DNA of 64,000 nucleotides from Bacillota bacterium (GTDB lineage: Bacteria > Bacillota > Dethiobacteria > SKNC01), in contig SKNC01000040.1 in NCBI GenBank assembly GCA_007120745.1, positions 3 through 64,002 of the forward strand. Reading direction: 5' to 3'. A model generated the notes under the pieces. The model had not been told where the DNA came from. It saw only the letters and a list, made by a program, of their open reading frames with translations, and did no database searches. Within the stretch, counting starts at the first letter, position 1. Each line of letters opens with the position of its first letter. Made by a program: the position numbers and the translations under genes. Below are positions 17,428 through 21,651 of the stretch, in pieces.

Positions 17428-17462
17428 CCCATGCAGGAAACTGTACTGCTTCCCTGCATGGG
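17428..17462 (-). terminator. Terminator after spoIIR
   Basis: CCCATGCAGG / CCTGCATGGG stem followed by TTTCTTATTTT on the minus strand. Confidence 0.75.
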
Positions 17463-17519: not shown

Positions 17520-18290
17520 TTAATTGCTGCGGCCGGAACCGTAGTAGGAGGGTAGAAAACTGCTGACCCATTCCACCACCCGGAAACGAACTTCTACTTC
17601 GTTATGGGATTTTTCCGCTGCTTCTTCGCTGCAGGACTCTCCCGGTGAAGGGGCCTGTTTTTCCTTTGAATTGTGGGAAACCGGGTTAGCGGAAACGCTG
17701 TCTCCGGCACAGCCCATATCCGAAATGGTCTCGCTCTCTCCATAGCTGTGATCCCGGCTTTTCTTCTCGGGTGCATGGGTAAAGCACAGGGGTGGGAAAA
17801 GGACGCACCACCAGTTCTCTCCTGCTCCGCTGCCGATGACAATCCTCAACGCTTCGTATTCCCCTGCGGGGAAATCACCGTACAGATACTGGCGGGGGGG
17901 AAACATTTCCCGCTGCAGGCTTACTTTCACCGGATGAGGAGTGCCCTCAGCCTGAAGAACCTGCTCCACCCTCTCCTGCACCAGGGGAATTTCCTCCAGC
18001 AGGGCCTGACGGGCCAGTTCCCTGGACCCGGTATCCTGAAGGCGGTCCCCCACGAAGGCCAGGACCTCCCGGGTGACCTGCTCCTTAACCTCCTGGTCCC
18101 GGGCCTCATCGCTGTGTGCCACCACGTGGAAGCGCAGGACCTCCTCCAGGTCCAGGGATTCTCCCCCGGACAGGAGGATTTTCTGTTCCGCTGTTTCCGG
18201 CTCCCGGGGAAGGTTTCCAAAAAACAATCCGCTGTACCCCTGTACTGCCATGACTGCCAGCATTATAAATATCCATAAAGGTCTTATCAT
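17520..18290 (-). CDS. spoIIR: Stage II sporulation protein R
   Basis: Signal peptide, LRFHVVAHSD..DQ..K, FP..Y.....PAGEYEALRIVIG.GAGENWWCVLFPPLCF; syntenic position after prmC. Confidence 0.95.
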   Translation of the reverse strand: MIRPLWIFIMLAVMAVQGYSGLFFGNLPREPETAEQKILLSGGESLDLEEVLRFHVVAHSDEARDQEVKEQVTREVLAFVGDRLQDTGSRELARQALLEEIPLVQERVEQVLQAEGTPHPVKVSLQREMFPPRQYLYGDFPAGEYEALRIVIGSGAGENWWCVLFPPLCFTHAPEKKSRDHSYGESETISDMGCAGDSVSANPVSHNSKEKQAPSPGESCSEEAAEKSHNEVEVRFRVVEWVSSFLPSYYGSGRSN

Positions 18291-18297
18291 AATATAT

Positions 18298-19083
18298 CTA
18301 CTCCTCTGACTGGAGGTTTTTGCGGATCATCTGCAGTGCGTTTTTTTCTATCCGGGAGACCTGGGCCTGGGAAATGCTGATCTCCTCCGCTACCTCCATC
18401 TGGGTTTTTCCCTCAAAAAATCTCATTTTCATAATATCTCTTTCCCGCTCCGGAAGCTTGTTCAGAGCTTCATTTATCGCCAGGTCCTCTACCCATAAGT
18501 CAGCGCTCTGTTTCTGGTCGCTGATCATGTCCATAACGTATACCGGGTCCGATGGGTCATTGAATACCGGCTCATGCAGGGATACAGGGTCGTAATTTGC
18601 ATTAAAGGCAAATACCACTTCTTCGCAGGTGATCCCCAGCTCTTTGGCAATATCCCCCACGGTGGGCTCTGCCTGGTTCACCCGGGCCAACTTCTCCCGG
18701 GTCTGCATGATTTTTTGTGCCAGGAGTTTCAGGGACCGGCTTACCCGTAAAGAACTGTTATCCCTGAGGTACCGTTTAATCTCTCCAATAATCATGGGCA
18801 CCGCATAGGTGGAAAACTGCACGTTCTGCCCCAGGTCAAAGTTATCGATGGCCTTCATCAACCCGATGCATCCCACCTGGAACAGGTCATCCACATATTC
18901 CCCACGGTTATTAAATTTTTTCATCACGCTGAGCACCAGTCGAAGGTTTCCGTTTATCAACTGTTCCCTTACCTCTTCTTCTCCCTGCCGCAGGCGCTGG
19001 AAAAGCGCCATAATTTCTTTATTACTCAGGGCGGGAAGCTTAAAGGTGTTCACTCCGCTAATTTCTACTTTTCGAGGCAGCAT
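18298..19083 (-). CDS. sigG: Sporulation sigma factor SigG (or SigG paralog)
   Basis: KVEISGVNT.KLP, GNLRLVLSV..FNNRGEYVDDLFQVGCIGLMKAIDNFDL, GKTQMEVAEEI.ISQAQVSR: the SigG-specific N-terminus and core. Confidence 0.92.
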   Translation of the reverse strand: MLPRKVEISGVNTFKLPALSNKEIMALFQRLRQGEEEVREQLINGNLRLVLSVMKKFNNRGEYVDDLFQVGCIGLMKAIDNFDLGQNVQFSTYAVPMIIGEIKRYLRDNSSLRVSRSLKLLAQKIMQTREKLARVNQAEPTVGDIAKELGITCEEVVFAFNANYDPVSLHEPVFNDPSDPVYVMDMISDQKQSADLWVEDLAINEALNKLPERERDIMKMRFFEGKTQMEVAEEISISQAQVSRIEKNALQMIRKNLQSEE

Positions 19084-19112
19084 AGTTGTCCCTCCTCACA
19101 CTTCTCTACTTT

Positions 19113-19142
19113 TAGTATTGCCAAATTTTAGCTGCCTTAGAC
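19113..19142 (-). promoter_or_regulatory. sigmaF/sigmaG-type promoter upstream of sigG
   Basis: Minus strand GTCTA-N15-GGCAATACTA against consensus GYATA-N15-GGnrAnAnTw (one mismatch). Confidence 0.65.
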
Positions 19143-19274
19143 ATGAAATTTATAATATTTTTGATATATGGTTAAATTAAGGGCAAAAATAAAAAACTCC
19201 CCAAAGGAAAAAGGGAAGTTAAAGCGAATTATAGTACAGTTAAAAAAATAACGTTTGATCCGGAGGGATTAAAT

Positions 19275-19694
19275 ATGAGCAAGTTAATTCGATTCGGGAT
19301 TTCCATGAATGAACAGCTTTTGGAAAAGTTTGACCGGCAGATTGTAAAGAAGGGCTATAACAATCGCTCCGAGGCCATCCGGGATCTGATTCGGGACCAG
19401 CTGGTACAGCTGGAGTGGGACAACGAAGACCAGGAGGTGGCAGGAACTGTCACCCTGGTTTATGACCACCATGTCCGGGGCCTTACCAACGTGCTGACGG
19501 AGATACAGCACGATTTCCATGACCTGGCCCTGTCCACCATGCACGTGCACCTGGACCACCACAACTGCCTGGAGGTGCTGGTGCTCAAGGGCAAAGCCTC
19601 CGATGCCCGAAAGCTGGCGGAAAAGCTGATCAGCATTAAGGGAGTCAAGCACGGCCAGCTCTCCATTACCAGCACCGGCAAGAACCTGGATTGA
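19275..19694 (+). CDS. nikR: Nickel-responsive transcriptional regulator
   Basis: Ribbon-helix-helix RFGISM...[11 protein letters not shown]; Ni site [16 protein letters not shown]. Confidence 0.96.
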
Positions 19695-19709: not shown

Positions 19710-20573
19710 TTACCGGGAAGCCAGAAGTACCCGCTCAATGCCGCTGTAATCCTTCACTGCCTCCAGCCCTTTAAAACCAGCAGCTGCGGCCAGGGACATT
19801 ACCCCGGGAATCTGGCCCATTCCCACTTCCAGGGCGGCCATGCCCCGGGGCTCCAGAAAATCATGAATTCCGGAAAAAATTCGGTGGTAAAAGTCCAGGC
19901 CATCCTCCCCGCCGTCCAGGGCCAGAAGAGGCTCGTGGTCTTTTATTTCCCTTTGAAGAAAAGCCAGTTCCCCCGTAGGTATGTAGGGGGGGTTGGAAAC
20001 AATCACAGAAAAGGTAAGCCCCTGTAAAGGTATCAGGGGTTCCCAAAGGTCACCTTCCAGGAAGGTGATTTTTTCTTTCACCCCGTGACGGAGGGCATTT
20101 TCCCTGGCCAGAGCCAGGGCTTCCGGGGAAAGGTCCACAGCCCAGGCCAGGCATTGAGGGATTTTTTTTGCCAGGGTAACGGCTAAAACTCCGCTGCCGG
20201 TACACAGGTCCAGCAGGTTGAAAGGCTTTGAAAAACCCTCTGCGGCCCGGTCCATCACCGCCTGACAGAGAATTTCCGTCTCCGGCCGGGGAATCAGAAC
20301 CCCGGGGGTTACCTTAAACCCCAGGCCCATAAACTCTTTTTCCCCCACCAGGTAATGAAAGGGCACCCCCAAAGCCCTTTTTTCCACCAGTACGCGAAAG
20401 CGCTCCAGGGTCCGGCCGGGCAGCTCCTCCCGGGGGTGGGTGTAGATATAGGCCAGGCCTTTTTCCATGGCAAATGCCAGCAGAAGAGCCCCTTCGCTTT
20501 GATAACCGGGTATTCCCGCTTCTTTTAACGTCAGAGAAGCCCATCTCAGGGCTTCTTTAATGGTTTTCGTCAT
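19710..20573 (-). CDS. prmC: Release factor glutamine methyltransferase
   Basis: LIPRPETE, LDLCTGSG, SNPPYI, ALDGGEDGL. Confidence 0.97.
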   Translation of the reverse strand: MTKTIKEALRWASLTLKEAGIPGYQSEGALLLAFAMEKGLAYIYTHPREELPGRTLERFRVLVEKRALGVPFHYLVGEKEFMGLGFKVTPGVLIPRPETEILCQAVMDRAAEGFSKPFNLLDLCTGSGVLAVTLAKKIPQCLAWAVDLSPEALALARENALRHGVKEKITFLEGDLWEPLIPLQGLTFSVIVSNPPYIPTGELAFLQREIKDHEPLLALDGGEDGLDFYHRIFSGIHDFLEPRGMAALEVGMGQIPGVMSLAAAAGFKGLEAVKDYSGIERVLLASR

Positions 20574-20583
20574 CTCATTGTCC

Positions 20584-21651
20584 TTACTGGGCCTGCTTTA
20601 AGAGCTCCGCCTGCTCCGCCGCCGCCAGGTTATCAATAAATTCCGCAATATCGCCGTCCAGCACCATGTCCAGCTTGTGCAGAGTCAGCCCTACCCGGTG
20701 GTCCGTCACCCGGCCCTGTGGAAAGTTGTACGTACGAATTCTTTCACTGCGGTCTCCGGAGCCCACCTGGCTCTTCCGTTCCTGGGCCAGCTCCTCATCC
20801 TGTTCCCTCTGGATAATTTCCAGAAGGCGAGCCCGCAGAACCCTCATGGCCTTATCCCGGTTTTTATGCTGGGACTTTTCATCCTGACAGGAGGCCACAA
20901 TTCCCGTGGGAACATGGGTAATCCGAACCGCAGACTTGGTGGTATTGACGCTCTGCCCTCCCGGACCGGTGGCGCAGAAGGTGTCAATCCTCAGGTCCTG
21001 GGGGTTAACGTCCACTTCCACGTCTTCTGCCTCGGGAAGAACCGCCACGGTGGCCGCCGAGGTATGAATTCTTCCGCTGGACTCCGTGGAGGGCACCCTC
21101 TGCACCCGGTGCACCCCGGACTCATATTTCAGGCAGCTGTATGCTCCATGGCCCTCCACCAAAAACACAATCTCTTTAAATCCACCGATATCCGTGGGGT
21201 TGGAATTGAGAATCTCCAGCTTCCAGCCCCGGCGCTCCGCATAACGAGAGTACATGCGAAAGAGATCCCCGGCAAAGAGCGCAGCTTCCTCTCCCCCGGT
21301 GCCTGCCCGGATTTCTACGATGACGTCCTTCTCGTCGTTGGGGTCCTGGGGAATCAGCTGCAACTTCAGCTCTTCCTCCAGTTTCTCTTTCTTTTCAGAA
21401 AGAAGAGCAATTTCCTCCTTGACCATCAGGGCCATGTCCTCATCCTGTTTTTCCTTCTGCATTTCCCGGGCCTCCTCCAGCTCCTGGCAAACCTGTTTAT
21501 AGGTGCGAAAAATTTCCACCGTTTTGCTCAAGCGGGAATGTTCCCGGGTATATTTCTGCCATTCCTGCTGCCGGCTTATCACTTCAGGGTCGCTGATCAG
21601 ACCCTCCAGCTCCAGGTAACGGTCTTCAATTTCCTGTAATTTTTCTATCAT
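20584..21651 (-). CDS. prfA: Peptide chain release factor 1
   Basis: [14 protein letters not shown] tripeptide region, [10 protein letters not shown] (GGQ), [15 protein letters not shown]. Confidence 0.99.

Follow-up and report, generated by a model that had tools for sequence, protein, structure and literature searches.

Why should the gene for a late forespore sigma factor stand directly in front of spoIIR, the gene for the signal that the forespore sends to the mother cell? The question is raised by a stretch of 64,000 nucleotides (nt) from contig SKNC01000040.1 of a Bacillota genome (assembly GCA_007120745.1, class Dethiobacteria), hereafter called the window, in which a SigG-type gene that we name sigG2 is followed at once by spoIIR. 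A first-pass annotation made from the sequence had proposed that sigG had either moved to this place or been copied to it, and that the sporulation cascade of this organism had been rewired. We found that sigG2 is a second, diverged copy of sigG, that the sigG2-spoIIR pair is a shared trait of the class and of three other families, and that it probably goes back to an ancestral sigG-spoIIR operon copied to a site near the replication origin.

A second sigG gene precedes spoIIR

Coordinates are given on the forward strand of the window, and sigG2 and spoIIR are both on the minus strand. In the direction of transcription, the features of the locus are as follows.

19113..19142, minus strand: forespore-type promoter, with the -35 element GTCTA at 19142-19138, a 15-nt spacer and the -10 element GGCAATACTA at 19122-19113
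19084..19112, minus strand: short predicted 5' leader with the Shine-Dalgarno sequence GAGGAGGG
18298..19083, minus strand: sigG2, 261 amino acids (aa), ATG start; a second, diverged SigG-type sporulation sigma factor
18301..18306, minus strand: Shine-Dalgarno sequence GAGGAG of spoIIR, formed by the last two codons of sigG2, 10 nt 5' of the spoIIR ATG
17520..18290, minus strand: spoIIR, 256 aa, with an N-terminal signal or membrane segment, a Spore_II_R domain at residues 49-173 and a C-terminal extension of ~80 aa
17417..17462, minus strand: intrinsic terminator, a 14-bp hairpin at 17462..17428 followed by UUUCUUAUUUU (U-tract)

What the first-pass annotation had seen in the letters was recovered at each point: a full-length SigG-type protein ending 7 bp before spoIIR (open reading frames [ORFs] 19083..18298 and 18290..17520), the spoIIR Shine-Dalgarno sequence within the last sigG codons (18306-18301), the GTCTA-N15-GGCAATACTA element upstream (19142..19113) and one terminator after spoIIR (hairpin 17462..17428). 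The stop codon of sigG2 is TAG (18300-18298), and the gap to spoIIR is exactly 7 nt (18297-18291).

We then compared the two proteins with family models. SigG2 scored 417.9 bits against the NCBIfam SigG model NF006071, above its cut-off of 372, and 399.6 bits against the second SigG model, TIGR02850, below its cut-off of 457. With 288.7 bits on the SigF model TIGR02885 (cut-off, 321.45), it does not qualify as a SigF. SpoIIR matched the Pfam domain Spore_II_R (PF09551) at 1.2e-39 and 136 bits (cut-off, 25) and reached 134.1 bits on TIGR02837, below the cut-off of 151.9. We assign it to the SpoIIR family on its domain, its N-terminal membrane segment, its single copy and its occurrence in a genome with spoIIGA and sigE. 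The C-terminal third of SpoIIR (17520-17770) is of low complexity, rich in Ser and Glu, and extends ~80 aa past the Spore_II_R domain. Within the genus, SpoIIR proteins are 57-70% identical, a conservation far below that of the sigma factor.

The assembly is a bin of 1.44 Mb in 137 contigs, and it also holds a canonical sigG. This gene, hereafter sigG1, lies on contig C11 in the canonical order ftsA-ftsZ-spoIIGA-sigE-sigG, and its product passes both SigG equivalog models (476.9 and 481.9 bits). SigG2, encoded after prfA-prmC-nikR and not behind spoIIGA-sigE, has an identity of 62% to SigG1 and of 37% to the SigF of the genome (contig C10). Of the two possibilities raised by the first-pass annotation, a second copy is therefore the one that holds, and a duplication fits better than a move, as a sigG is retained behind spoIIGA-sigE. 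The spoIIR of the window is the only copy in the genome, as tblastn found no second one; no spoIIR remnant was seen behind sigG1, where a 72-aa ORF has no similarity to SpoIIR.

The contig that bears the window (C57) has a G+C content of 50.2% against a bin mean of 45.9%, at the top of the range of the bin. A binning artifact was considered and rejected: none of its single-copy genes recurs elsewhere in the bin, and complete genomes carry both sigG copies on one chromosome. One of them, G002, belongs to the same genus and consists of a single contig of 3,558,951 bp. It encodes SigE-SigG1 at 2.51 Mb and, at 3.50 Mb, a 90% identical SigG2 together with SpoIIR.

The sigG2-spoIIR pair is conserved across the class and beyond

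We looked for the pair in 149 species genomes of the class. A SigG match was found in 88 of them, 79 of which carry at least two SigG-type genes, and the scores are bimodal, with one group at 466-491 bits (SigG1) and another at about 360-427 bits (SigG2). spoIIR is present in 84 genomes, and 82 of the 84 genes lie directly behind a SigG2-type sigma gene, the other two being at contig ends. Judged by their coordinates, 69 spoIIR genes directly follow a low-scoring sigma gene on the same strand, and none follows a high-scoring one; inspection of 14 of the other 15 loci revealed SigG2 upstream in 13 and a contig that ends too early in 1. The synteny rpmE-DUF1385-prfA-prmC-(nikR)-sigG2-spoIIR is found throughout the class, often with nifS as the next gene.

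A wider sample of 121 genomes was spread evenly over the Bacillota, with Paenibacillus-like and Brevibacillus-like members among them, and spoIIR was present in 101 of these. It lies directly behind a canonical, high-scoring sigG in 65 of the 101 genomes, behind a SigG2-like second copy in 9 and away from sigG in 27. Four of the nine SigG2-type genomes belong to the class and five to three other families (G156; G188 and G231; G206 and G247), where the loci share the order prfA-prmC-sigG2-spoIIR(-nifS). Virtually all sporulation-competent genomes of the class keep the pair, as do three other families, and it always comes after prfA-prmC.

The cluster spoIIGA-sigE-sigG-spoIIR, or sigG-spoIIR, occurs in Moorella mulderi, a Pelosinus metagenome-assembled genome (MAG), Halanaerobiales MAGs, Hydrogenispora, Capillibacterium and a Limnochordia MAG; the sigG-spoIIR link is absent from Bacilli and Clostridium-like genomes. 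Most anaerobic Bacillota have the link, which is probably the ancestral wiring, and the frequency of spoIIR behind a canonical sigG (65/101) implies that the layout of B. subtilis is derived. The separation of sigG from spoIIR, which the first-pass annotation had taken as normal, is this B. subtilis arrangement, and in most anaerobic lineages the two genes adjoin. Its proposal of a rewired cascade special to this organism finds no support: the arrangement is already common in the clade, a point that the annotation had itself named as telling against it, and adjacency of sigG and spoIIR is common across the Bacillota.

Two variants of the layout were seen along the way. In the Limnochordia-like loci L046, L069, L080, L081, L111 and L112, a SigE match lies on the opposite strand 5' of sigG-spoIIR, i.e., spoIIGA-sigE is inverted. 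Among 20 genomes with spoIIR away from sigG, the order prfA-prmC-spoIIR occurs only in the Bacilli-like loci L163 and L164 (G169, Paenibacillus-like, and G215, Brevibacillus-like), at the same prfA-prmC site that sigG2-spoIIR occupies in the window. Loss of the sigma gene from a SigG2-type stage could have given rise to the B. subtilis layout, a point on which the SpoIIR tree is poorly resolved.

SigG2 is a single clade under purifying selection

In an IQ-TREE phylogeny of 70 SigF and SigG sequences, the split between the two families has a support of 100/99 and SigG2 falls on the SigG side. All SigG2 sequences, i.e., those of the class and of G156, G188/G231 and G206/G247, form one clade (99/93) nested inside SigG, and the SigG1 sequences of the class form a separate clade (98/84). 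The first-pass annotation had allowed for a protein that groups outside SigG, and the tree places it inside. A single SigG2 clade with a shared synteny suggests that the gene was duplicated once, long ago, and not repeatedly. The clade has a longer stem (0.30) than canonical SigG, and its internal branches are longer as well.

Between close orthologues, the ratio of nonsynonymous to synonymous substitution rates (dN/dS) was 0.03-0.06 for SigG2, 0.019 for SigG1 and 0.09-0.17 for SpoIIR. SigG2 is thus a functional, diverged paralogue under purifying selection. Seventeen positions with a conservation of 85% or more in canonical SigG are replaced in SigG2, namely, positions 4, 9, 54, 119-123 (RD..Y to K[LM]..Q), 130, 161-181 (DGGDPI to D[SP][ST]DPV) and 194, and none of the 17 falls in region 2.x or region 4.2. 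Our alignment showed that regions 2.4 and 4.2 (the SQAQVSR helix) and the N-terminal extension are of the sigmaG type. SigG2 probably reads sigmaG-type promoters, and it differs in region 3. Region 3 of sigma factors contacts core polymerase. SigG2 has one solved relative, sigmaF bound to SpoIIAB (1L0O), in which we take region 3 to be the part of sigmaF that contacts SpoIIAB.

The SigF proteins of the same genomes are unusual too. The SigF of our genome (C10:3101-3832), encoded behind the C terminus of SpoIIAB, stays below every NCBIfam cut-off (240 bits against 321 for TIGR02885). All 15 SigG2-bearing genomes that were tested have a strongly diverged SigF, which scores at most 261 bits on TIGR02885, falls below 200 or goes undetected in several, and lacks the region-3.2 motif SIHE..DDGDPI throughout. 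In genomes without SigG2, SigF mostly scores 298-369 bits, G155 (194 bits) being the exception, and mostly keeps the motif. The divergence of SigF and the presence of SigG2 may reflect one event in the lineage, or SigG2 may have taken over part of the role of SigF.

sigG2 and spoIIR have the features of one forespore operon

The GTCTA-N15-GGCAATACTA element is the sole match within the window, where shuffled sequences give an expectation of 0. Its relaxed form GTYTA-N15-GGnnAnAnTA has one match in the 1.44-Mb genome, and a single match is not above chance. It is therefore conservation across orthologous loci, and not uniqueness in the genome, that argues for a real promoter: all 22 SigG2 loci from families f1, f2, f4 and f6 carry GT(C/T)TA-N15-GGCAATA(C/A)TA ~50-110 nt (mostly 50-70 nt) 5' of the start codon. 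Family f5 has a variant of the same geometry, GTCTA-N15-GCTCATACTA or, in an alternative reading, GTCTA-N18-CATACTA.

The B. subtilis sigmaF consensus has a -10 element GGnnAnAHTR and an optimal spacer of 15 nt (PMC5942855). Against GYATA-N15-GGnnAnAHTR, the sigG2 promoter is perfect in its -10 element and spacer, and its -35 element, GTCTA, has one mismatch at the conserved A. No other forespore-type promoter of the genome has a GTYTA -35 element. We also noted a spoIIQ-like gene (contig C17:2597) with a standard sigmaF-type promoter, GTATA-N15-GGATATACTA. Its predicted product of 263 aa appears to be membrane anchored, with a C-terminal M23/LytM-like domain, and resembles clostridial SpoIIQ; it had no NCBIfam match. 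The idea that the region 4.2 helix of SigF has co-evolved with the GTYTA -35 element was examined and found to be unsupported, as the helix varies across the class without pattern.

The promoters of canonical sigG genes that carry spoIIR read G(T/A)ATA-N15-GGCAATAAT, and that of the class sigG1 reads GTATAAAAA-N14-GGAAATAMT. The spacer is 15 nt in 51/53 spoIIR-linked sigG genes and 14 nt in 56/69 unlinked ones, class sigG1 included, which is suggestive of a spacer length that tracks spoIIR linkage. In B. subtilis, the 14-nt spacer of PsigG dampens early, sigmaF-driven transcription of sigG, 15 nt being optimal, and a GTG start codon together with a leader hairpin that hides the ribosome-binding site (RBS) lowers translation (Mearls et al. 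2018; PMC5942855). sigG2 differs in all of these respects: its spacer is 15 nt long, it starts with ATG and its leader lacks an RBS-hiding hairpin, the fold of 19112..19075 being no more stable than shuffles (z -0.3).

The distance from the sigma stop codon to the spoIIR start is between -23 and +13 nt in 25/28 SigG2-type loci, and in many relatives the two codons overlap; the remaining 3 loci show larger overlaps that come from automatic start calls (-53, -134 and -140 nt). In canonical sigG-spoIIR loci the gap has a median of ~13 nt, is 0-60 nt in most cases and does not exceed 115 nt. A sigmaF-type motif was not found within 250 nt 5' of spoIIR in ~60 loci, and matches to an internal sigma-70 promoter in the region occurred at the level expected from shuffles. 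The only strong terminator of the pair follows spoIIR (-26 kcal/mol, z -3.37; 0/200 shuffles equally stable). The pair thus shows the marks of a bicistronic operon: one strand, a minimal gap, no internal promoter or terminator, a terminator at the end and an adjacency kept in distant genomes. Taken together, they strongly suggest that sigG2 and spoIIR are co-transcribed. The first-pass annotation had seen an apparent operon behind a sigmaF-type promoter, and the pair indeed looks like one forespore operon led by a promoter of the sigmaF/sigmaG type; the separate spoIIR promoter inside sigG for which the annotation had left room did not appear.

The pair lies close to the replication origin

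The complete genomes examined have dnaA at position 1, and we measured distances from this gene.

sigG2-spoIIR in G002: 58 kb (6 degrees)
sigG2-spoIIR in G231: 63 kb (7 degrees)
sigG2-spoIIR in G206: 127 kb (15 degrees)
sigG2-spoIIR in G247: 119 kb (15 degrees)
sigG1 in G002, G231, G206 and G247: 106-158 degrees
canonical sigE-sigG-spoIIR cluster in G199, G207, G155 and G261: 84, 111, 136 and 159 degrees, respectively
spoIIR apart and without a sigma gene in G189, G238, G243 and G166: 12, 29, 47 and 48 degrees, respectively

Whenever spoIIR lies outside the sigE-sigG cluster in these genomes, it is near the origin. Timely expression of spoIIR in the forespore of B. subtilis needs an origin-proximal position (Khvorova et al. 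2000, reviewed in PMC5034851), and the location of unlinked spoIIR genes fits this requirement. In the SigG2 lineages, spoIIR would have carried a copy of sigG and the promoter with it when it relocated.

Genes adjacent to the operon

The genes upstream of sigG2 in the window are the following.

19275..19694, plus strand: nikR (NF003381 NikR, 9e-64), divergent from sigG2
19710..20573, minus strand: prmC, an ORF whose Pfam domains were seen on an identical contig
20584..21651, minus strand: prfA, an ORF whose Pfam domains were seen on an identical contig

A DUF1385 gene and rpmE lie further upstream of prfA. The statement of the first-pass annotation that spoIIR normally comes after prfA-prmC therefore still applies here (19710-21651), with sigG2 and the opposite-strand nikR in between, which had been overlooked. 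nikR stands between prmC and sigG2 in most loci of the class; it is absent from some f4 loci and from the SigG2 loci outside the class. As it diverges from sigG2 across a spacer of 191 nt (19084-19274), the two genes share a control region. nikR is a conserved neighbor and probably not a part of the operon.

Origin of the operon and alternative explanations

We propose, with a probability of roughly 0.75, that the locus arose when a sigG-spoIIR forespore operon of an ancestor was duplicated into a site near the origin, where its sigG persisted as an early paralogue. The ancestral cluster would have been spoIIGA-sigE-sigG-spoIIR. The ancestor of the SigG2 lineages would have copied the sigG-spoIIR unit, together with its promoter, to the prfA-prmC site near the origin; spoIIR would then have been lost from the old site, and both sigG copies retained. 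After asymmetric septation, forespore polymerase with sigmaF would initiate at GTCTA-N15-GGCAATACTA, as would, later and probably, polymerase with a sigmaG-type factor. sigG2 and spoIIR would share one mRNA, translationally coupled over the 7-nt gap and ending at the hairpin at 17462-17428. Secreted SpoIIR would trigger SpoIIGA, leading to the processing of pro-sigmaE in the mother cell, and SigG2 would be made simultaneously. The position of sigG2 near the origin, which places it in the forespore from the start, its 15-nt spacer, its ATG and the lack of a leader hairpin would make it the early sigG copy. sigG1, distal to the origin and with a dampened 14-nt spacer as in B. subtilis PsigG, would be the late one.

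Several points weigh against this proposal. All SigG2 promoters of the class, and that of the G231 locus as well, have GTCTA or GTTTA, and not GYATA, as their -35 element; the change from A to C or T at position 3 of this element is absent from 85 canonical sigG promoters, which have G(T/A/C)ATA, and the model does not explain it. In family f5 (loci L194-L205), the -10 element CATACTA is of the textbook sigmaG type and without the GG of the sigmaF type, and a dependence on sigmaF is not obvious from these sequences. The association of spacer length with spoIIR adjacency is confounded by phylogeny, and an independent-pairs test offered one usable pair on supported branches and so had no power. 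The early and late roles of sigG2 and sigG1 are assigned by analogy with B. subtilis. Finally, co-transcription, the start site and the sigma factor that uses the promoter are all predictions from the DNA sequence.

An alternative that we judge unlikely is that SigG2 is a distinct, fifth sporulation sigma factor, an early forespore factor that would take over much of the sigmaF regulon or bridge sigmaF to SigG1. Its sensitivity to SpoIIAB would be altered, and the degenerate SigF would mainly fire the sigG2-spoIIR promoter. Such a role would agree with the replacement, in region 3 only (119-123 and 161-181), of positions that are invariant in canonical SigG and often in SigF, with the divergence of SigF and the loss of its region-3.2 motif in all SigG2-bearing genomes tested, and with a -35 element, GTYTA, that the genome has only at the sigG2 promoter. 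However, the sigmaG-like regions 2.4 and 4.2 of SigG2 indicate no new promoter specificity, the spoIIQ-like gene retains its standard GTATA-N15-GGATATACTA promoter, and the region 4.2 helix of SigF is not consistently changed across the class, leaving the proposed co-evolution with GTYTA unsupported. Moreover, the divergence of SigF and the presence of SigG2 may be a single shared event (n = 1), and G155 has a diverged SigF without SigG2.

We also considered, as a speculation that we hold to be doubtful, a broader role for SigG2 as the fifth sigma factor of the cascade in the class and its allies. In such a cascade, an early, origin-proximal SigG2, produced along with the SpoIIR signal and its control by SpoIIAB or another anti-sigma factor altered by the changes in region 3, would supplant a degenerating SigF in early forespore transcription and then activate the origin-distal sigG1, the fixed change from GTATA to GTYTA serving as a dedicated trigger.

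It is very improbable that sigG2 is a mere carrier, i.e., a functionless ORF, redundant with SigG1, that persists because spoIIR needs its promoter and translational coupling. The junctions are indeed tight or overlapping in nearly all loci, the DNA-binding regions of SigG2 are the same as those of SigG1, and the Bacilli-like genomes with prfA-prmC-spoIIR show that a sigma gene is dispensable at this site. A mere carrier ORF would nevertheless be expected to decay or shrink over the divergence of a class, and SigG2 is under purifying selection along its entire length, with a dN/dS only 2-3 times that of SigG1, has no stop or frameshift in ~80 genomes and has conserved residues of its own. We give next to no credence to transcription of spoIIR from its own forespore promoter in the 3' end of sigG2: a sigma-70-like ATGATA-17-TATAAT at 18290-18262 could be cited for it, but this match starts at the spoIIR ATG itself and such matches are as numerous in shuffles, the ~60 loci searched lack a sigmaF/G-type motif in the 250 nt upstream of spoIIR, and the 7-nt gap, the Shine-Dalgarno sequence inside sigG2 and the stop/start overlaps of many relatives all speak for coupling to sigG2.

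Comparison with known systems

The copied sigG-spoIIR operon that we favor can be set beside four known systems. SigG2 shares with the product of B. subtilis sigG (spoIIIG) the N-terminal extension KVEI.GV.T.KLP, the NGNLRLV motif, region 2.4 (STYAVPMIIGEI.RYLRD) and the region 4.2 helix (ISQAQVSR), and its promoter resembles PsigG in being of the dual sigmaF/sigmaG type, GxxTA-N15-GGnnAnAnTA. sigG2 differs in being a second copy that does not lie behind spoIIGA-sigE, with a GTCTA -35 element, a diverged region 3 and a TIGR02850 score below the cut-off.

The spoIIR gene belongs to the same family as that of B. subtilis and has a similar neighborhood (rpmE ... prfA-prmC upstream), a forespore-type promoter and an origin-proximal location (6-15 degrees in complete relatives). 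In B. subtilis, spoIIR is a sigmaF-dependent single-gene unit; here, it appears as the second gene of a sigma-led operon, without a promoter of its own, and its product has the C-terminal extension of ~80 aa.

The spoIIGA-sigE-sigG-spoIIR clusters of Moorella, Pelosinus, Halanaerobiales and numerous further anaerobic Bacillota have the same order of sigG and spoIIR, the same -10 element and the same 15-nt spacer. However, such a cluster contains the sole sigG of the genome, next to sigE and 84-159 degrees from the origin, whereas sigG2 is a duplicate at prfA-prmC near the origin and has the A-to-C/T change in its -35 element. The separation of SigF from SigG offers a further parallel, as SigG2 likewise results from a duplication in the same sigma family and diverges in timing or regulation, not in DNA-binding residues. 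It is much younger and narrower than that split, being confined in our samples to one class and three families, and is nested inside SigG instead of branching between SigF and SigG.

In the searchable full-text literature, we found no description of a sigG-spoIIR operon, of a second sigG or of sigG paralogues, and the comparative studies of sporulation that we consulted give spoIIR and sigG only as present or absent. The coupling of spoIIR to a second sigmaG gene near the origin, conserved in a class and its allies, is thus apparently undescribed, and the recognition of the sigG-spoIIR link as a common state is also new.

Implications for the sporulation cascade

To our knowledge, the cascade of four sigma factors (F, E, G and K) is treated as universal in endospore formers. 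Here, a whole class and at least three other families keep a fifth, diverged sigmaG paralogue under purifying selection. If the coupling of sigG to spoIIR, common as it is, is also ancestral, as is probable, then early, sigmaF-driven transcription of sigG is old, and sigmaG activity would always have needed post-transcriptional restraint. Such a restraint agrees with the revised model of B. subtilis (PMC5942855). The two sigG copies differ in exactly those features that experiments in B. subtilis have linked to the control of timing, the promoter spacer and the distance from the origin. These differences make sigG1 and sigG2 a natural experiment on the timing of a developmental switch by gene position and promoter strength.

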